The notes beneath the pieces are model-generated. The model made no database searches and was not told where the DNA came from. It worked only from the letters and a program-made list of their open reading frames with translations. Made by a program: the position numbers and the translations under genes. Shown in pieces: positions 745-25,549 of a stretch of DNA of 64,000 nt. This stretch comes from Bacteroidia bacterium. Its GTDB lineage: Bacteria; Bacteroidota; Bacteroidia; NS11-12g; UBA955. Numbering within the stretch: position 1 is the stretch's first letter; each line of letters opens with the position of its first letter. The stretch is from NCBI GenBank assembly GCA_044224315.1, contig JBGAKR010000003.1:172510-236509 (forward strand). The letters are read 5' to 3'.

Positions 745-1917
745 TCAGGGATTGATAATTTTTGAAATATCCTTTTCCTCCGGACGATCTTTGATTAAAA
801 ATACCAAATATTTTTTTAGCGCATCGGCTTTTGTTTTTTCACCCGCTGCATCATAGTGCTGCCACAGTTTCAGCATAGGTACAATATAGTTGGCATTAAT
901 GCATGCAACCATATCCTGCGAACGATCGTAATAGAAGGGTTGCAGGATATAATCCAGTTTATAATTTTGTTCAAAATTACGCCTTAATAAAGCCACATTA
1001 TCCAAATCCTGGGTATTAAACTCATAAGCCAGGCCTGTTAAAAACAGGTTACCCGATACCTTCTGATAAATTTCCTGGTCGGCCGTTAGTGATACATATA
1101 CCGGATTCTTTTTAAAATTATAGGCCGCAAAAGGTATAATATCGGAATTAAATATTTCTTGTAAACTACGTTGAGAATCTGCGCTGATTCTGGGGTCGTA
1201 CATATCTTTATCCCATAAGGGTGTGTTTTTTTCTTTACAGATTTTATCGCGATAATTTTTAATACCGAATAAAGAAAAATTGATGGCAGTAACATCTGTG
1301 CGTATGCCCTGCGACTGTAAAAACCATACCGGATAGGTGTCGTTATCACCCACTGTAAAAATAACTGCATTGGGCTTTAAACCAGCCAGCATGTTATACG
1401 CATAGTACATAAATCCGGGTGAGTATTCATGGGCTTCAACCATTTGCCGGGCAATGGCATTCCGTTTTTCAATATCGCGGTCTAATTCGGCTACAATCAG
1501 CGAAAATTCAAGGTGCTCTGTTCGGTCTGGTCCCAGCATTTCAGCCTTGCGCAAATAAGGAAGCAGTTTATCATCCAGTCCGCCATTGGAATAAACCACC
1601 ACATTGTACTCATAACTTTCGGGCACCGCTTTTCCCATATTGTCTATCAACTGCTGATGCTCTTTATGGCGTTCGGCACGCGGACGCTTGTCTGTGGTAT
1701 CCAGTTTCATCAGGTTGCGATTGGCTTTGTACCAATAATACCATGCCAATGCATTTTTTGGGTCCTTTTCCGTCTCCTTTTTCCATAAATTATTTTGGGT
1801 GCGGTACCAGTCCAAACTATGGGTAACCACGGCAAAGCCATAAACAGGTTCAGGCTTTTGAGCCCTGCCAATTTGAAAATAAAGCAAAGCCAGTATGATG
1901 AGAATGTACTTTTTCAT
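745..1917 (-). CDS. secreted hypothetical protein with signal peptide; first gene of the ECF sigma operon
   Basis: ORF 745-1956. The likely start is the internal [20 protein letters not shown] signal peptide at 1917. It is 4 nt upstream of the sigma gene on the same strand. No domain recognised by eye. Confidence 0.6.
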
Positions 1918-1946
1918 AGTAATCGTTTGCAAAGTAATACACTTGA

Positions 1947-1965
1947 GTTTGAACAAAGTTCAAAC
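1947..1965. promoter_or_regulatory. perfect palindrome GTTTGAAC-AAA-GTTCAAAC just upstream of the secreted-protein/ECF-sigma operon start; operator candidate
   Basis: Seen directly: gtttgaacaaagttcaaac, ~30 nt upstream of the minus-strand ATG at 1917. Confidence 0.3.
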
Positions 1966-2015
1966 AGGGAATAGGGAGTAGGGGGCAGAGGGTGGCAACA
2001 GCCTTTTTGACAGCC

Positions 2016-2052
2016 AGTTAGAAGTTAGGAGTTAGAAGTTAGAAGTGAAGAG
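2016..2052. repeat. short tandem repeat of ~7-8 nt units, about 4-5 copies (gttagaag/ttaggag)
   Basis: Seen directly: cagttagaagttaggagttagaagttagaagtgaagagtt. Confidence 0.7.
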
Positions 2053-2389
2053 TTGAACAGCCTTTTTTAGTTTACAGTTTGCAGTTTATAGTTGACAGTA
2101 TTAACAGCCTCCGCCACATAACATGGGCGGATGAGCCGCCAGTCTAGACAGCCCCAAAAAACATAGATTCATAGTTAACAGCCCAAGTGCACATTGACTT
2201 TTTATGCTACAAGGTGAAACCTATAGTATTCTATGTTTTCTTGGTAGTTAAAACTAATGTGTGCTATGTGGTTAAAATCAGTTAGAAGCGGAGGGACTTG
2301 CTTTCCATCGCGAGTAAAACCTCACGATTTACAGTAATAATAGCCTTTTGAACAGCGAGTTAGATGACCAGTTCCCATTCCGAACGAAT

Positions 2390-2960
2390 GCTCAAATTCA
2401 AAATTCACAATTTCTAATTGGCTGTTTCTTCGGTTGTCCCTACCCCAAATTGGTCAGTAAGGAATTAAACATCAAACAATAGCCCCGCCTCGTTCCTCTA
2501 AGGATAAGCATTCACAATTCATAATTCACAATTTCTAATTGGCTGTTTCTTCGGCTGTCCCTACCCCAAATTGGGCAGTATGAAATTAAACATCAAACAT
2601 TAGCCCCGCCTTGTTCTCGTAAGGATAAGCATTCACAATTCACAATTCATAATTCACAATTCTAATTGGCTGTTTCTTCGGCTGTCCCTACCCCAAATTG
2701 GTCAGTTAGGAATTTAGCATCAAACAATAGCCCCGCCTCGTTCCTCTAAGGATAATCATTCACAATTCACAATTCATAATTCACAATTCATAATTCACAA
2801 TTTCTAATTGGCTGTTTCTTCGGCTGTCCCTACCCCAAATTGGTCAGTAAGGAATTTAGCATCAAACATTAGCCCCGCCTCGTTCTCCTAAGGATAAGCA
2901 TTCACAATTCACAATTCATAATTCACAATTTCTAATTGGCTGTTTCTTCGGCTGTCCATT
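2390..2960. repeat. imperfect tandem repeat array: about 4.4 units of 118-152 bp, ~95% identical, with a nested AATTCAC/AATTCAT heptanucleotide microsatellite whose copy number differs between units
   Basis: The unit core CTAATTGGCTGTTTCTTCGGCTGTCCCTACCCCAAATTGGTCAGTAAGGAATTTAGCATCAAACAATAGCCCCGCCTCGTTCCTCTAAGGATAAGCATTCACAATTCACAATTCATAATT recurs at 2414, 2535, 2662, 2814 and 2932 (last copy truncated). There is no ORF of 60 aa or more on either strand across 1957-2993. Confidence 0.9.
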
Positions 2961-2993
2961 AATCATTAAACACTAAACATTAAACATTAATAA

Positions 2994-3743
2994 TTAATCC
3001 ACCGCTTCTTTTATCATCCGCTCACTTTCCTCTTTCCCCAAATACTTATTAATGATATTATGCACAAAATACAGCAACGGCAAAAGCACAAACGCCATCG
3101 TTACTTTGTAAATATAATTCATAATACCCACCCCAATAACTTGCTGCATATTCCAATCACCATATAAATAGAATGCCACATACAATACCACAAAACTATC
3201 AATCAATTGCGATACCAATGTACTGCCTGTAGCCCTTACCCATACAAGGTTGTGGCCGGTTTTCTTTTTTAATTTGGTGAATATAAATGCATCGGTTAAT
3301 TGACCAATTAAGAACGCAATTAATGAACCAATAATAATGCCCAAACCCTGTCCAAAAACACTATCAAAGGCTTTTCCGTAATCCGAAATACCTTGTCCGG
3401 TTTTGCTTTTTACCCACCAATCCGCTGGAGTACTTTTCATGGAAAAATAGGCCATAATAAATGCATATACCAGCATTATCGCGGTTAAATAACTGAGGGT
3501 TCTTACCCCTTTTTTGCCATAATATTCATTAATTAAATCGGTCATAATAAATACAATAGGCCACAGAATTACGCCGGCAGAAAGTGAAAAAGAACGATCG
3601 GCACCCAAAAAATGCAAATCCACAGGTTCCAATCCCAGCGTGGCTTCCAGCGAAAATATTTTAACTCCGATAAACTCTGCTATGATGGCATTGGTTACAA
3701 AAAAGAACCCCAGAATTAAAAAGAGTTTATTTTTTTTATCCAT
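2994..3743 (-). CDS. queuosine precursor transporter-like membrane protein (YhhQ / DUF165 family)
   Basis: 249 aa, multi-pass membrane protein. The N-terminus MDKKNKLFLILGFFFVTNAIIAEFIGVKIF and overall layout resemble the YhhQ family. It lies 3 nt downstream of the MBL RNase gene on the same strand. Confidence 0.6.
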   Translation of the reverse strand: MDKKNKLFLILGFFFVTNAIIAEFIGVKIFSLEATLGLEPVDLHFLGADRSFSLSAGVILWPIVFIMTDLINEYYGKKGVRTLSYLTAIMLVYAFIMAYFSMKSTPADWWVKSKTGQGISDYGKAFDSVFGQGLGIIIGSLIAFLIGQLTDAFIFTKLKKKTGHNLVWVRATGSTLVSQLIDSFVVLYVAFYLYGDWNMQQVIGVGIMNYIYKVTMAFVLLPLLYFVHNIINKYLGKEESERMIKEAVD

Positions 3744-3746
3744 AAA

Positions 3747-5150
3747 TTATAATTCTACACTACCCAACATTTCGGCGATGGTTACCTTTTTATAGCCCGC
3801 ATTCAACAATCGGCTTTTCCAGGCCCCTAGCGCGTTTTCGTTGCCATGTACCAAAAATATTTCTTTCACCCGTTCTTTATTCTGGCAGCTTAAATATTGC
3901 AGCATTTCATTGTAATCGGCATGGGCACTAAAATCTTCCATTACTTCAACACGGGCATTCACCTGATAATCAGAACCAAATATGCGCACTCCGGGATCTC
4001 CCCGACGCAGCTTGCCTGCCAGACTGTCTGGCGTTGCATATCCCACAATCAAAATGGTATTATTGGCATCCTCAATATTGTTGGCAATATGGTGTTTTAT
4101 GCGCCCGGCCTCGGCCATTCCGCTGGCTGAAATAATAATGCTTGGCTCAGTCTCCTCATTTATAGCCTTGCTGTCTTCAACCTTGCTAATGTACTGCAAA
4201 CCCGGAAAATCAAATGGATTTCCGTCGCGGGTGATGTATTCCAGAATTTCAGGATTGAACTCTTCCCGATGGGTATTCATGATTTCAGTTGCCTGTGTGC
4301 TCAAAGGACTGTCTACATAAACCTTAATAAAGGGCAGTTTTTTATCGTGCATCAGTTTATCAAGCAGGTACACAATTTCCTGGGTTCGGCCTACCGAAAA
4401 AGCAGGAATTATTATTTTACCCCGATTGCGCACACAGGTGCGTTGAACAATTTCCAACAATCGGGCAGAAGAATCGCTGGCTGTGGGGTGCAAACGGTCG
4501 CCATAGGTGCTTTCGCAAATGATATAATCGGCCTGCGGAAATGCATCCGGCCCTTCCAGTATATCATCTCCAGGACGACCGATATCGCCCGAAAAAGTGA
4601 GATGAACCGGCAATCCGTTTTTACGCAGAAGGGTAAGATTAATAGACGTACTACCTAAAATATGGGCATTTTGGGTGAGTAATACCTTGGTGGTTTTGCC
4701 TACCAAAAATTCAACTTCATTTCGCACAGTCTCAATTTGCCGCATTACCTGGTCAACGTCCTCAATAGTGTACAGTGCTTCAAGCGGTTCCTGCTTTTTC
4801 TCAGCCCTGCGGCGGTTTATGCGTTCCAAATCCATTTCCTGAATGTGGGCACTATCTGCCAGCATCAACCGGGCCAGATCGTGTGTGGCTGAGTTGCAAT
4901 AAATGGGACCGCTAAAACCTTCGCGCACAAGCTTGGGCAATAGTCCTATATGGTCGATATGGGCATGCGATAGTATTACGTAATCGATTGATTTAGAATC
5001 GAAATGAAAGTGACGGTTGAGGAAATTGCCTTCCTCGCCTTCGCCCTGAAACATGCCGCAATCCAGGAGTATATTTTCATCGTTATCGGTGGTTACCAAA
5101 TGCTTGCTGCCCGTTACCCGGCCAGCGGCTCCATAAAACGTTATTTTCAT
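3747..5150 (-). CDS. MBL-fold metallo-hydrolase of the beta-CASP RNA-metabolising family (RNase J/CPSF-like)
   Basis: 467 aa. HxHxDH motif (LSHAHIDHIG) near the N-terminus, with a beta-CASP-like and RNA-specificity C-terminal region. Confidence 0.75.
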   Translation of the reverse strand: MKITFYGAAGRVTGSKHLVTTDNDENILLDCGMFQGEGEEGNFLNRHFHFDSKSIDYVILSHAHIDHIGLLPKLVREGFSGPIYCNSATHDLARLMLADSAHIQEMDLERINRRRAEKKQEPLEALYTIEDVDQVMRQIETVRNEVEFLVGKTTKVLLTQNAHILGSTSINLTLLRKNGLPVHLTFSGDIGRPGDDILEGPDAFPQADYIICESTYGDRLHPTASDSSARLLEIVQRTCVRNRGKIIIPAFSVGRTQEIVYLLDKLMHDKKLPFIKVYVDSPLSTQATEIMNTHREEFNPEILEYITRDGNPFDFPGLQYISKVEDSKAINEETEPSIIISASGMAEAGRIKHHIANNIEDANNTILIVGYATPDSLAGKLRRGDPGVRIFGSDYQVNARVEVMEDFSAHADYNEMLQYLSCQNKERVKEIFLVHGNENALGAWKSRLLNAGYKKVTIAEMLGSVEL

Positions 5151-8256: not shown

Positions 8257-9615
8257 ATGATAAGACACTTTAGGTCCCTGGTACTCGCGGTAATTTTTAC
8301 CATCTCAGTGAGTGCCTACGCCGAGGAGAAACCCGCTGCCACTGCAGAAAAACCTGCCGCCGCAGCCGAATCGAAGTTTGACGCCGCAGCCGGAAAAAAA
8401 CTATTTGAAGCCAATAACTGCGGAAGCTGTCACGCCTTAGACAAGAAAGTAGTAGGACCTGCCCTGCGCGGTGTTACCGAACGCCGTTCTACCGAATGGT
8501 TGGTTAAATGGATTCGCAACAACGAAGAATTGCGCAAAAGCGGCGACGCCGATGCGATTGCCTTGTTTAAAGAAAACGGCGGCGCTGCCATGAACGTTTT
8601 CCTAAACCTTTCTGAAGGCGATGTAAAAAACATCCTGGAGTATATCAAAACTGCTCCTAAACCTGTTGCCCCCAAACCGCCTGTGGTGGATGGACCAACT
8701 CAACCTCCTTCTTCAGGCAATGGTACCTATGTAATTTTCACCTTAATCGGTGTTTTCATCATCGTACTAATTATCCTGAATAAAGTTCGCAGCACTCTGC
8801 GCAAACTGGCCGCTGAACGCATGCCCGAAGATTTCCCATTCGAAGGCGTTCGCGAGCCTTGGTACCGCCGCATTCTGCCTGGTGCTTTAAAAGCCATGAA
8901 CCCTGTGGTACTTACCTTGTTTACCGCTGCAATTGTCGGCATCATCGGTTTCGTTTGGTTCTATAAATGGGCCATGACCGAAGTGGGTGTGCAAAAAGGT
9001 TATGCCCCTACTCAACCTATTGCTTACAGCCACAAACTGCACGCCGGCGATTTGAAAATCGATTGCAAATACTGCCACGTGGGTGTTGAAACCAGCAAAT
9101 CTGCTACGATCCCTTCCTTAAATATATGTATGAACTGCCACAAAGGGGTTCAAAAACGTTCTGAAGGCCAGGAAGGCATTGATATTTCTCCCGAAATTGC
9201 AAAAATCTACGCCGCATTGGATTACCATCCCGAAAAAACCGGCGCCGAACAATGGGGCAATAACCCCCGCCCTGTGCAATGGATACGCATCCACAACTTG
9301 CCCGATCATGCATATTTCAACCACAGCCAGCACGTAAAAGTGGGTAAACTTGCCTGCCAAACCTGCCACGGCCCAATCGAAAAAATGGAAGTGGTACAGC
9401 AGTGGAGCACCCTGCAAATGGGCTGGTGTATTGACTGTCACCGCAATACTGGTATTGATGTAGCCAATAACAACTACTACAAAGCCTTGCACGAAAAGGC
9501 CAAAGCAGATATGGCTAAAAACAAATCTGAAAGTAAATATTTTGGCCCCGATGGTAAAGTAAAAGTTACTGTAGCCATGAACGGTGGTCTTGAGTGTTCC
9601 AAATGTCACTATTAA
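8257..9615 (+). CDS. actA: alternative complex III subunit ActA (multihaem cytochrome c) with an extra N-terminal monohaem cytochrome c domain; six CxxCH motifs in total
   Basis: Signal peptide, then CGSCHA, a Pro/Ala-rich linker, a transmembrane segment, then CKYCH, CMNCH, CQTCH, CIDCH and CSKCHY. It is the first gene of the actABCDEF cluster. Confidence 0.8.
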   Translation: MIRHFRSLVLAVIFTISVSAYAEEKPAATAEKPAAAAESKFDAAAGKKLFEANNCGSCHALDKKVVGPALRGVTERRSTEWLVKWIRNNEELRKSGDADAIALFKENGGAAMNVFLNLSEGDVKNILEYIKTAPKPVAPKPPVVDGPTQPPSSGNGTYVIFTLIGVFIIVLIILNKVRSTLRKLAAERMPEDFPFEGVREPWYRRILPGALKAMNPVVLTLFTAAIVGIIGFVWFYKWAMTEVGVQKGYAPTQPIAYSHKLHAGDLKIDCKYCHVGVETSKSATIPSLNICMNCHKGVQKRSEGQEGIDISPEIAKIYAALDYHPEKTGAEQWGNNPRPVQWIRIHNLPDHAYFNHSQHVKVGKLACQTCHGPIEKMEVVQQWSTLQMGWCIDCHRNTGIDVANNNYYKALHEKAKADMAKNKSESKYFGPDGKVKVTVAMNGGLECSKCHY

Positions 9616-9639
9616 TCTCTAATTGCTGAAAGAACTAAC

Positions 9640-12600
9640 ATGTCCAACAACATAAAGTACTGGAAAGGTGAAGAAGAGCTGGTAAGGGATCCCAAATTCC
9701 TGGCCACTCAGAAAAACGAATTCTCAGAAGCCCTTCCTTTAGATGAGGTGCTGTCTGAAGACGGATTCGAACTGAACTCCAATCGCCGTGATTTTCTGAA
9801 ATTTTTCGGATTCAGTGTTACCGCTGTAGCACTGGCGGCCTGTTTCCAAACCAAAGTGCGCCACGCGGTGCCTTACCTGGTTAAACCCGATGATGTAACC
9901 CCCGGTGTTGCCAACTATTACTCTTCTACCTGCGGATCCTGCGCTGCCGGATGTGGTATTGAAGTAAAAGTGCGCGAAGGACGCCCCATTAAAGTAGACG
10001 GAAGCCCACGTTCACCCATCTCTAAAGGTGGTCTGTGCGCAGCAGGTCAAGCCGGTATCCTCTCTTTATATGATACCGAACGCCTGGCCAACCCACTGAA
10101 AGGTGGAGCTGAAGTTACCGACTGGGCCAAACTCGACGAAGAAATTATGGGTATGCTCAATGGTGTTGATAAAGCAGGTCAGAAAATTTTAATTTTCTCT
10201 AACTCTATCAATAGCCCCGGCACCCTGAAAGCCATTGCCGATTTCAAAACCAAATTCACTACTACCGAGCATGTAATGTACGACGCTGTTTCATACAGTG
10301 GTATAATTATGGCCAATGAGAAAGATTTCAGCACTGCTGCTATTCCTTCTTATAATTTCGAAAATGCAGAAGTGATTGTAAGTTTCGGCGCCGATTTCCT
10401 CGGTACCTGGATTTCTCCTGTAGAATATACCAAAGCTTACAGCACCAACCGTATTCCTACTCCGGATAAGAAAATGTCGTTGCACATTCAGTTCGAAAGC
10501 AACCTCAGCATTACCGGTACCAATGCCGATTACCGTTTCCCCATGAAGGCTTCTAAAGAAGCACTTTATGTGGCTTCATTGTATAATTACATTGCTGCAA
10601 AATCGGGTTCTAAACAAATTCCGGTAGCCAATATGGGCGAACTTGCGGGTAACTCTATCCAAAAAGCCGGTGAAGCCCTGCTTGCTGCCAAAGGTAAAAG
10701 CCTGGTAGTAAGTGGTTCTAATGATGCCAATGTGCAATGCCTGGTAAATGGCATCAATATGTTGCTCGAAAACTATGGCAAAACGGTTGACATCAACAAC
10801 CATAGCAAACAGTACCTGGGCAATGATAAAATGGTGGCCGATGCACTCAATGATTTGAATGCCGGCAAATACGGTGCGGTTATTTTCTACAATACCAACC
10901 CTGTTTACAACGGCAACAAAGAAGCTTGGGAAAATGGCATTAAGAAAGCCAAAGTGAGCATTTCTTTTGCCCAAACCAAAGACGAAACTGCCAGCCTCTG
11001 CAACTATGTTTGCCCCGATCACCACTACCTGGAAAGCTGGGGCGATGCAGAACCTAAAATGGGTCTGTACCAGTTTACCCAACCCACCATTAGTAATGTA
11101 TTCAATACCCGTCAGGCACAACTTTCTCTGTTGGCTTGGTCTGGTATGATGCCTAAAATGGAAGTGGATCCCCTGGCTAACAAAGGTGTATTAACCCAAA
11201 AATTCAAAACCGACGCATACTACGCCTATATCAAAGCCAACTGGGCTGAGAAATTGGGTGGAAATGCCGATACTGCGTTCAACAAAGTACTGCACGATGG
11301 TGTTTACATGGTTGAAACCAAATCGGATAAAGTAGCCTCTTATGCCGGTGATGTTACAGCCCTTGCCGATGCAGTTACCGCTGCAGGCAAAAGCAATGGC
11401 ATCGACCTGGTTCTTTACGAATCAGTAGGAGTGGGCGATGGTACCCATGGCAATAACCCATGGTTGCACGAGTTGCCCGATCCGGTAAGCAAAGTATGCT
11501 GGGATAACTATGTATCTGTGCCTAAATCTCTGGCTGCTACCCTGGGCCTGAAAGAACGCGATACTGTAAATGTAAGCGCCGGTAAATACAACCTTACCAA
11601 TGTTCCTGTAATCATTCAACCTGGTCAGGCAAACGGCACCGCCGCCCTTTCTCTGGGTTATGGCCGCACCGCAGCCGGTAAAGTTGGAGGTAGTAAAGAA
11701 AAAGGTTTCGATACCATTGGTTTCAATGCCTATCCCTTTGTTACCATGTCGGGCAACACCCGTAACTACACCATTTCTGATGTAAAAATCACCAAAGGTG
11801 AAGAAACTTACCACCTTGCACAAACCCAAACCCACCATAGCATAGAGGGTAGGGACCTGGTGCGTGAAGCTACCTACAGCGCCTGGCAGAAAAACAAAAA
11901 TGCCGGCAACGACAAAGCTAAAACCGAAGTATTTACCATTTGGGAAAAACGCGAATACCTGAAGGATGGTTCTCCAAACCACCGTTGGGCTATGGCCATC
12001 GACCTGAATGCATGTACTGGTTGCTCGGCCTGTGTAGTAAGCTGCTCTATTGAAAATAACGTGCCCGTAGTAGGCCGCGAAGAGATTCGCCTGCGCCGCG
12101 AAATGCACTGGATTCGCATAGACCGCTACTATTCTTTCGCCAATAGCGATAAATCTGTGGATGGTAACTTCATTACCCGCGAAAAAGAGATACACAATGC
12201 CGATGAAAAACAAGGCGCAAACGGACAATACGCACATTGGGAAAATGTGAAAGTGGTTCATCAGCCTATGTTGTGTCAGCATTGCTCTCAAGCTCCCTGT
12301 GAGTCTGTTTGCCCCGTATTGGCAACCACCCACAGCAGCGAGGGTCTGAACCAAATGACATACAACCGTTGCATCGGAACCAAATATTGCGGAAATAACT
12401 GCCCTTACAAAGTGCGCCGCTTTAACTGGTACCGTTATAACGACAATGATAAGTTTGACTTCCACTTCAACAACCCATTGGGTAAAATGGTCATCAACCC
12501 CGATGTTACCGTTCGTACCCGTGGTGTGATGGAAAAATGCTCATTCTGCGTACAACGAATTCAGGAGGGCAAACTGAAAGCCAAACGCGAAGGAAAATCT

Positions 12601-24681: not shown

Positions 24682-24811
24682 ACTGTTTCGGTTTCAAATA
24701 TCGCACCGTATTGCCAACTTTCAACCAAACTACAATTATTCTATATCGTGTTGTATAAAAATATAGACAAAATGGTAAAATAATATATGAATGAAAATTG
24801 CCCGGAAGCCA

Positions 24812-24843
24812 AAGGCAAAAAAAAACACACCCTAAAGTGTGTT
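24812..24843 (-). terminator. rho-independent terminator (minus strand) downstream of the small basic ORF
   Basis: On the minus strand: aacacac-tttagg-gtgtgtt followed by nine T. Confidence 0.6.
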
Positions 24844-24865
24844 TTCTATATCAAATTGATAAGAT

Positions 24866-25015
24866 TTATTCTTGGTCTTCGAGGATAATACCAGACTCAC
24901 CTTTATGGGGTGAAGCAATTGTTACCACACTACGGAGGCGTTTAATAGTTTGCACGCGCCTGTTCATGCGGCTGCGGATCTTGGCTTCTTTGCGTTTCAG
25001 TCTTGTAACTCCCAT
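24866..25015 (-). CDS. unannotated small ORF, 49 aa, very basic (MGVTRLKRKEAKIRSRMNRRVQTIKRLRSVVTIASPHKGESGIILEDQE)
   Basis: ATG to TAA on the minus strand; below the 60-aa cutoff of the ORF track. A terminator lies 23 nt downstream. Sits inside an 868-bp intergenic region. No family recognised. Confidence 0.35.
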   Translation of the reverse strand: MGVTRLKRKEAKIRSRMNRRVQTIKRLRSVVTIASPHKGESGIILEDQE

Positions 25016-25261
25016 GATTCGAAAATTGAGCCGCAAAAATAGGAATTAGATTCTAAATATGCAAGTGGTAGGTTTAATAATGTAAAATGCTTGCCCGAAC
25101 CTGAAAGGGGCGGGTAAAATGTAGAATGTTAAATGGAACAGCCTCGGCCACATTTCCAATGGGCGGAGCAAGGCGCAGTCTTCCACATTTTCCGCAGGCT
25201 GAGTAAAGTGCAAAGTGCGAAGTGCACACAACAGCCAATTAAATGTAAAATGTAACATATA

Positions 25262-25420
25262 CATTTCTCACATACACTTTCTCTACCAATCCACTATTCA
25301 ACCATTCCACCAATCTAAAATTGCGCAATAACAAAACAACACAAAAACACAATACCACAACAACAGAATTACCCAATACCACAATACCACCACAACACAA
25401 TTACACAATACCACGACATT
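25262..25420 (+). repeat. low-complexity A/C-only tract on the plus strand (CA-rich, degenerate ACAATACCAC-type repeats), upstream of hmgA
   Basis: Seen directly: ~150 nt with almost no G or T on the plus strand (acaaaacaacacaaaaacacaataccacaacaacag...). Confidence 0.8.
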
Positions 25421-25549
25421 GCGCAATATATTGCTAATCAATACTTTATACCACTTGTTTTGAATATTTATGAATTACTTGGGGGTGACCCAAATCACAT
25501 TTTATACTAACACATGTTAGTTGATTTGCCGCAACTTAATTTCATAACT

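Follow-up and report, generated by a model that had tools for sequence, protein, structure and literature searches.

What is the gene-free, repeat-filled block that separates a transporter gene from an extracytoplasmic function (ECF) sigma factor operon in a Bacteroidia bacterium of the UBA955 lineage (GTDB Bacteroidota; Bacteroidia; NS11-12g), and does it serve the operon that follows it? The DNA analysed here, called the window throughout, is a stretch of 64,000 nucleotides (assembly GCA_044224315.1, contig JBGAKR010000003.1, positions 172,510 to 236,509 of the forward strand), and all positions are counted from its first letter. About 1.07 kb lies between the stop codon of a yhhQ-like gene and the start of a gene for a 390-aa protein, and this gap is free of genes; the largest open reading frame (ORF) fully within 1957–2993 is 44 aa, in agreement with an earlier note, made from the sequence alone, which had described a gap of about 1 kb without any ORF of 60 aa or more. 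As both yhhQ and the operon are minus-strand genes, the block lies 3′ of yhhQ and 5′ of the operon, and the minus-strand reading suits it best. Domain matches agreed with the flanks that had been named, a yhhQ-like gene on one side and a secreted-protein/ECF-sigma operon on the other, and the block is indeed unusual for an otherwise compact genome. We propose that it is probably a cluster of mosaic intergenic repeats, built of modules and specific to the lineage, that is of a kind with bacterial interspersed mosaic elements (BIME) and BOX elements and would have grown by slippage and unequal recombination.

A tandem array of composite units downstream of yhhQ

Tandem Repeats Finder reported a single array at 2395–2957 with a period of about 142, 4.4 copies, 81% matches and a score of 696, which bears out the earlier count of about 4.4 head-to-tail copies. 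The register spacings given by a repeat search (121, 127 and 142) and the alignment of the units resolved the array, all of it on the minus strand, into a terminal heptad stub (2395–2413), unit u1 (2414–2534; 121 bp, 3 heptads), unit u2 (2535–2661; 127 bp, 4 heptads), unit u3 (2662–2803; 142 bp, 6 heptads), unit u4 (2804–2931; 128 bp, 4 heptads) and the leading double box of the array (2932–2956). The unit starts previously placed at 2414, 2535, 2662 and 2932 were retained, the fourth was moved from 2814 to 2804, and the unit lengths range from 121 to 142 bp and not from 118 to 152 bp. As had been claimed, the number of TTGTGAA/TTATGAA heptads sets the length of a unit, the only other difference in length being one indel of 1 nt. 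These heptads make up tract A, which is longest in u3 (2758–2802, six copies, by Tandem Repeats Finder and by counting) and occurs on the same strand at 2900–2930 (four copies), 2631–2662 (four), 2510–2533 (three) and, as two degenerate copies, in the terminal stub. Tandem Repeats Finder detected heptad arrays (ATTCACA) nested in every unit, and the seven period-7 arrays that it reported in the window are all in 2016–2997, with none elsewhere. The heptad numbers differ between units and also between orthologous tracts of relatives (see below), a pattern that upholds the proposed signature of slipped-strand mispairing. A second kind of heptad tract, B (TTTAATG/TAATGTT type), begins right after the stop codon of yhhQ and occupies 2957–2993 on the minus strand with about 5.5 copies.

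Every unit closes with the double box GACAGCC-N5-AACAGCC. On the minus strand it is present as GACAGCC-GAAGA-AACAGCC at 2938–2956, 2810–2828, 2668–2686 and 2541–2559 and as the variant GACAACC...AACAGCC at 2420–2438; these five matches, four exact and one with GACAACC, compare with 0.02 expected by chance, and the minus-strand direct repeat described earlier for each unit was thus recovered. The box module itself is the 11-nt AACAGCC(AATT), often doubled 12 bp apart. The unit body opens with a 27-nt GC box (GCTTATCC...GAGGCGGGG) at 2483–2509, 2604–2630, 2731–2757 (in the variant GATTATCC) and 2873–2899, again on the minus strand, and CCAAATTGG was present in all four full units. In what follows, the modules are referred to as the AACAGCC(AATT) box, the two kinds of heptad tract, the GC box and a GC hairpin (hairpin-1). 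A CRISPR array, with repeats of 23–47 nt, was rejected here as it had been in the earlier note, since the period is 121–142 bp, the whole unit is repeated with 88–95% body identity and there are no unique spacers. An array like ToxI of type III toxin–antitoxin systems (repeats of about 34–48 nt) was rejected on the same period and because the downstream signal-peptide protein is without a ToxN domain.

The 96-nt bodies of the units differ from each other at 5–12 positions. Alternate units share their state at body columns 13, 14 and 31, and neighbouring units do so at columns 41 and 43, a pattern that fits a putative history of duplication, divergence of the two copies, a two-unit duplication and later private changes. 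The differences are concentrated at one end: 12 of the 13 variable columns are in the first 56 nt of the body and one is in the last 40 nt, which comprise a small hairpin and the double box (12/56 versus 1/40 columns; Fisher p = 0.007).

The copy number of the array might also be an artefact of assembly. Short-read contigs of two samples halt at 2928 and 2079 and leave the interior uncrossed: a Logan contig of 22,181 bp from the same strain (SRR28480385) matches the window at 100% over 2928–25108 and ends within the first array unit and at the first base of a second module cluster (25108), and another pair of contigs, drawn from two samples, comes to an end at 2079 inside an AGTTTAC tract. Artefactual copies would be identical, yet the units differ at the body positions given above and in heptad number, with shared variants nested, which argues against an artefact; independent contigs are 100% identical to both flanks, of which the first double box is part. 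We regard this explanation as highly improbable, and the ending of short-read contigs at these clusters fits multi-copy or polymorphic sequence.

Dispersal of the modules in the window and beyond

The main omission of the earlier note was that the array unit is a composite of modules that are found at other loci and in other organisms; six boxes on the opposite strand at 1997–2183, a 25-nt inverted match and the second cluster at 25108–25260 had also been missed. The window contains 29 RACAGCC sequences where 12.05 ± 3.4 would be expected, and 15 of them are in 1997–2956 and two at 25137 and 25230; outside the two repeat clusters its count equals the background, and the counts of boxes in genes are also at background. 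An inverted block of array modules on the plus strand (1997–2183) was found to contain boxes at 1997, 2009, 2056, 2103, 2147 and 2177, the heptad tracts AGTTAGA (2016–2046) and AGTTTAC (2069–2099), both detected by Tandem Repeats Finder on the plus strand, and hairpin-1 (2110–2131; minus-strand reading TCCGCCCATGTTATGTGGCGGA, then G), which was recognised by folding. The inverted match, with 80% identity between 2010–2034 and 2919–2943, joins the two ends of the block and covers a box and the first heptads. Hairpin-1 (TCCGCCCA...TGTGGCGGA) is an imperfect palindrome with a stable fold, with z of −2.2 in a contig of the same strain (L002) and −1.7 in a contig of a relative (L011). The conserved AACAGCC box is not palindromic.

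The two converging blocks of modules are separated by a single-copy core (2184–2394), in which no repeat was found. A long and almost continuous hairpin was noticed at 2180–2273 in this core, with −28.5 kcal/mol and z of −2.97 on the plus strand (none of 200 shuffles equalled it) and z of only −0.65 on the minus strand, a strand asymmetry caused by G-U pairs; it hints at a possible plus-strand RNA antisense to the flanking genes.

The second module cluster (25108–25260, plus strand) could be aligned collinearly with an array unit. Its order is GC box, heptads similar to tract B (AATGTTN type), G(G/A)ACAGCC, a hairpin-1-like sequence, heptads, and finally AACAGCCAATT with heptads, and it is located in a gap (24682–25513) that, apart from the block, is the only large one in the window without ORFs. 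A repeat rich in A and C, with 8-mer and 32-mer units (CAATAACA; ACACAATACCACAAT...), was seen at 25326–25414, after the cluster and upstream of the gene at 25514, and a small basic ORF of 49 aa (MGVTRLKRKEAKIRSRMNRRVQTIKRL...), at 24866–25015 on the minus strand and absent as a called gene in the collection, adjoins the cluster.

The contig L002 of the same strain reaches 530 bp past the start of the window, and at its positions 2534–2580, 14 nt after the stop codon of the anti-sigma gene that ends the operon, it has AACAGCC-AATT-(GTGAATT/ATGAATT)x4 followed by the hairpin TCCGCCCACCTTTGGTGTGGCGGAG. Four module loci were thus found in about 65 kb of this strain, all of them intergenic. A metagenome scan for the box with heptads gave one hit, on the contig L009 of a different organism, where AACAGCC immediately follows a stop codon and, after a further 40 nt, AACAGCCAATT-TGTGAAT-TGTGAAT comes next; the intergenic region is 310 bp long and separates efflux-type genes. 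When GTDB representatives were scanned for the double box, only two chance hits in Amycolatopsis were obtained, so that the representatives include neither this species nor an array-bearing relative. Comparison with plasmids and phages by blastn gave nothing, and scans of viral contigs gave only chance hits in coding repeats.

Conservation and change of the modules in relatives

The lineage appears to be poorly sampled, as the closest homologue of the 390-aa protein is just 65% identical; the named homologues are metagenome-assembled genomes of Bacteroidota. Two samples, however, were found to hold relatives that are about 88–91% identical to the window strain at the DNA level. In the relatives sampled, a single module is located directly after yhhQ. 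Tract B after the yhhQ stop codon has 5.5 copies in the window, 4.5 in L011 and 3.5 in L010; the double box GACAGCC-GAAGA-AACAGCC of the window is identical in L011 and has one change in L010; and tract A, with four copies in the first unit of the window, has two in L011 and one in L010. The partner that follows is the unit body with its GC box in the window and hairpin-1 in both L010 and L011. Behind the anti-sigma gene the partner is hairpin-1 in the window strain (L002) and a GC box in the relative's contig L020, where the box-heptad module is followed by a 27-nt box with the GC-box end motifs (GCTT...GAGGCGGGG), the same as those of the start of the unit body and of the same length. The modules therefore stay in place across relatives of about 88–91% identity, and heptad numbers and partner modules change. 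Comparison of the unit with about 65 kb of this genome and with relatives, along the lines of a check put forward earlier, turned up other loci and a heptad copy number that differs among relatives; the composition of the modules, their dispersal and their differences between strains are matters of direct observation.

The exchange of the partner behind box and tract A, between hairpin-1 and the GC box (L002 2534–2609 versus L020 1716–1785; window 2873–2956 versus the ends of L010 and L011), suggests that dispersed modules may have undergone recombination or conversion. A deletion of the operon in relatives through flanking direct repeats was also considered and rejected for at least one relative, which retains the operon. 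The contig L021 of a relative ends at 24839, short of the second cluster.

The distant orthologous loci L006, L007, L008 and L019 contain neither boxes nor heptads. In L007 the gene order is beta-CASP, Vut_1, X, 392-aa protein, sigma and anti-sigma, where gene X (8964–9893) encodes a protein of 309 aa with a signal peptide and no Pfam hit and sits where the window has the repeat block. A coding or pseudogene remnant was rejected for the block, as its ORFs do not exceed 44 aa and tblastn found no trace of the 309-aa gene in the window; in the relatives of about 91% identity, too, the repeat module and not this gene is directly after yhhQ.

At three loci (yhhQ, the anti-sigma gene and L009) a single module begins 0–40 nt past the stop codon and has the orientation of the gene, and this placement is kept in relatives. 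Such a position would suit elements that act at the RNA level on 3′ ends, such as a terminator, an insulator, an mRNA stabiliser or protein sites in a 3′ untranslated region, with the array as a reinforced insulator between yhhQ and the ECF operon; the stability of hairpin-1 in L002 and L011 and the location of the array boxes on the sense strand of both flanking genes speak for the same. The hairpins, however, lack a following T-run, and a terminator scan gave one weak site in the block; the array units fold like shuffled sequences; the clusters at 1997–2183 and 25108–25260 are not behind a gene of the same strand; and L007 copes with 107 bp between the co-directional genes. A role of this kind is unlikely in our opinion.

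Tests of a regulatory function for the array

The first gene of the operon is preceded by the motif TGAAC-N15-G(T/G)GTAT in five of five orthologous loci (the window, L006, L007, L008 and L019). In the window this is TGAAC-N15-GTGTAT at 1937–1962 on the minus strand, the sole exact match there, and it is outside the repeats. This motif is plausibly the operon's own promoter, a candidate for autoregulation of the ECF type. We infer that the array plays no dedicated part in the regulation of the operon, next to which this conserved promoter-like motif is found.

The earlier note had suggested a promoter module, a phase-variable control region or an array of small RNA genes. Consistent with tandem promoters or a phase-variable promoter region of the ECF operon tuned by the heptads, the array is sense-oriented upstream of the operon, AATGTTTG in units 2 and 4 is one mismatch away from the −7 box TAnnTTTG, and GAAAC-N15-GTGAAT in the array loosely resembles the conserved motif of the operon. 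The one-mismatch motif had been claimed for every unit, but units 1 and 3 carry ATTGTTTG with two mismatches. Exact TAnnTTTG is absent from 1918–2993 on either strand, against 73 occurrences in the window, and a housekeeping promoter array (−7 TAnnTTTG and −33 TTTG about 19 nt upstream) was rejected because the units carry versions with one or two mismatches only; a scan for the sigma-70 consensus is not meaningful for this phylum. An array of ECF-type promoters was rejected as well, its closest likeness, GAAAC-N15-GTGAAT, having three mismatches, at which about 163 chance matches are expected per window. Similarly, phase variation was rejected: the heptads of the array (2395 onwards) are at least 430 bp upstream of the motif at 1937–1962, none of them is between promoter elements, and no ORF covers the tracts. 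The array is also absent in relatives that retain the operon. A promoter function, phase-variable or not, is thus very unlikely.

An array of small RNAs received no support either, as Rfam gave no match at gathering threshold in the whole window and only chance matches (E ≥ 3) in an E-value scan of 1850–3050, and the units fold no better than shuffles on both strands (z from −1.03 to +0.85). An origin of replication was rejected on the count of TTATCCACA (DnaA box) with up to one mismatch, which was 20 against 21.5 expected with one match in the block, and on the lack of a skew signal. The missing −7 boxes, the chance-level motif likeness, the lack of an Rfam match, the shuffle-like folds and the absence of DnaA box enrichment together leave the promoter, phase-switch, small-RNA-array and origin readings unsupported.

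The double box might instead be a multimerised putative binding site, for a response regulator, a recombinase or a nucleoid protein, through which the array would regulate the ECF operon or yhhQ in cis or titrate the protein. The direct repetition of the box at 12 bp, its number far above the chance expectation, the lower variability of the box end of the unit, the retention of the box in relatives of about 91% identity and the single box in another organism are all in favour of this. The box is, however, also present behind the anti-sigma gene, in the cluster at 25.1 kb and in L009, and its presence at unrelated loci means that it is not specific to the ECF operon; the operons of L006, L007, L008 and L019 are without boxes yet retain TGAAC-N15-GTGTAT; and no candidate regulator was identified. 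On balance, we find a binding-site array improbable.

A possible history of the block

A cluster of mosaic intergenic repeats would account for these observations as follows. In the related strains that were sampled, the yhhQ stop codon is directly followed by one module string (tract B, double box, tract A and partner module), and in the window strain this string would have been amplified into four extra copies. The likely order of events is a duplication, the divergence of both copies and a two-unit duplication by unequal recombination, and the heptad tracts of each copy would have been lengthened or shortened independently via slipped-strand mispairing. A second set of modules lies in inverted orientation at the far end of the gap, and the block occupies the place that the 309-aa gene has in a more distant relative. 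If the modules have any effect, it would most likely be a generic, REP/BIME-like one (REP, repetitive extragenic palindromic) exerted at the 3′ end of the upstream transcript, given that single modules closely follow stop codons, in the orientation of the gene, at three loci. Slippage and unequal recombination as the mechanism of array growth are inferred from the unit variants and the heptad numbers.

Several points weigh against this proposal. The conservation gradient towards the box end and the nearly unchanged box in relatives, in which yhhQ is about 9% diverged, are unexplained by neutrality, and the box could be under selection as a putative binding site. The dispersal is based on four loci in about 65 kb of the strain and on a few contig ends of relatives. 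The interior of the array (2079–2928) has no independent confirmation by short-read contigs. Finally, no mobilising enzyme was identified in the window and the short contigs, in which no search for RAYT was made.

The AACAGCC(AATT) box may also be what a transposase (Y1/RAYT-like), recombinase, RNA-binding protein or other protein of this lineage recognises, and this protein would spread the modules and seed the heptads. This idea is tentative and rather improbable, and it would explain why differing heptad tracts always abut the box, why the box end is the most conserved and why the same grammar is present in a second organism. If true, these mobile mosaic elements would be a family not described before, and they would provide a handle on the origin of heptamer assemblages.

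Flanking genes

The block starts at the stop codon (2994–2996) of the gene for a YhhQ/Vut_1 queuosine-precursor transporter (2994–3743, minus strand; Pfam PF02592, 1.3e-46; TIGR00697). On its other side, the operon is read from the minus strand and begins with the gene for the 390-aa signal-peptide protein, which is PF28495-like (745–1917), followed by the ECF sigma gene (165–692) and the anti-sigma gene for a protein of 208 aa, which extends past the start of the window. In sample SRR28480381 the ECF sigma gene showed an A6-to-A5 homopolymer change near window position 323 (L003 position 1757) that gives ORFs of 127 aa and 33 aa; the change is a sequencing error or else marks a variant in the population with a frameshift. 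The beta-CASP/metallo-beta-lactamase (MBL) ribonuclease encoded at 3747–5150 on the minus strand scored 365 bits against the NCBIfam model of the type VII CRISPR protein Cas14, far below the cut-off of 800; rather than a Cas protein, it is most likely a normal beta-CASP RNase similar to aCPSF1.

Significance and comparison with known systems

Proteobacteria and Firmicutes have well-characterised mosaic intergenic repeats, but hardly any are described from Bacteroidota, and the origin of heptanucleotide assemblages is unexplained. The locus described here is a compact case of heptad tracts with a conserved box as their anchor, and its modules can be compared between strains. It may be used as a lead on the spread of repeats, as a marker for strain typing and as a warning for assembly and annotation, as short-read contigs end at these clusters; at present it gives no pointer to a new regulation of the ECF sigma operon.

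The BOX element of Streptococcus pneumoniae has the structure boxA-boxB(n)-boxC, with modules of 45–59 bp and no microsatellite. The block resembles it, by description, in being a modular intergenic element with one internal module of variable copy number, and the two are not known to have any sequence relation. Long simple sequence repeats of heptanucleotides were reportedly treated by Mrazek in 2007, and the tracts found here are head-to-tail 7-nt units, beyond chance length, in non-coding DNA.

Assemblages of several types of heptamers in long intergenic regions, which close relatives lack and at which contigs break, are described for some Bacteroidetes and Cyanobacteria (MacGregor 2015, PMC4679880). 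The block is similar to these assemblages in having several heptamers in one intergenic region, in being missing from relatives with the same neighbourhood, in ending contigs and in a copy number that varies with the strain. It differs in that its heptads are tied to an anchor box and GC modules and that the whole string is repeated at 121–142 bp, a higher-order unit that such assemblages are not known to have; the heptamers are also different, being TTGTGAA, TAATGTT, AGTTAGA and AGTTTAC here and TAACTGA there.

Ordered tandem arrays of REP/REPIN sequences together with their flanks are known in Pseudomonas fluorescens SBW25 (PMC3116915). Like BIME and REP/REPIN elements (E. coli BIME-2, SBW25), the modules are short, have a mosaic order and are often located just past stop codons, at the four loci found in about 65 kb they are extragenic and scattered, and some of them have been amplified with their flanks into ordered arrays of several hundred bp, with partners that vary by strain. 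The mosaic combination of modules with higher-order tandem arrays, a trait of REP/BIME, was thus found in this strain. Unlike in REP, the conserved element is a non-palindromic direct-repeat box of 7–11 nt and not an imperfect palindrome of 20–40 nt, heptanucleotide microsatellites are integral to it, the host is a member of Bacteroidota and there is no sequence similarity. The block represents a new sequence family, with unproven function, that does not appear to be REP and is of the same kind as BIME and the heptamer assemblages.

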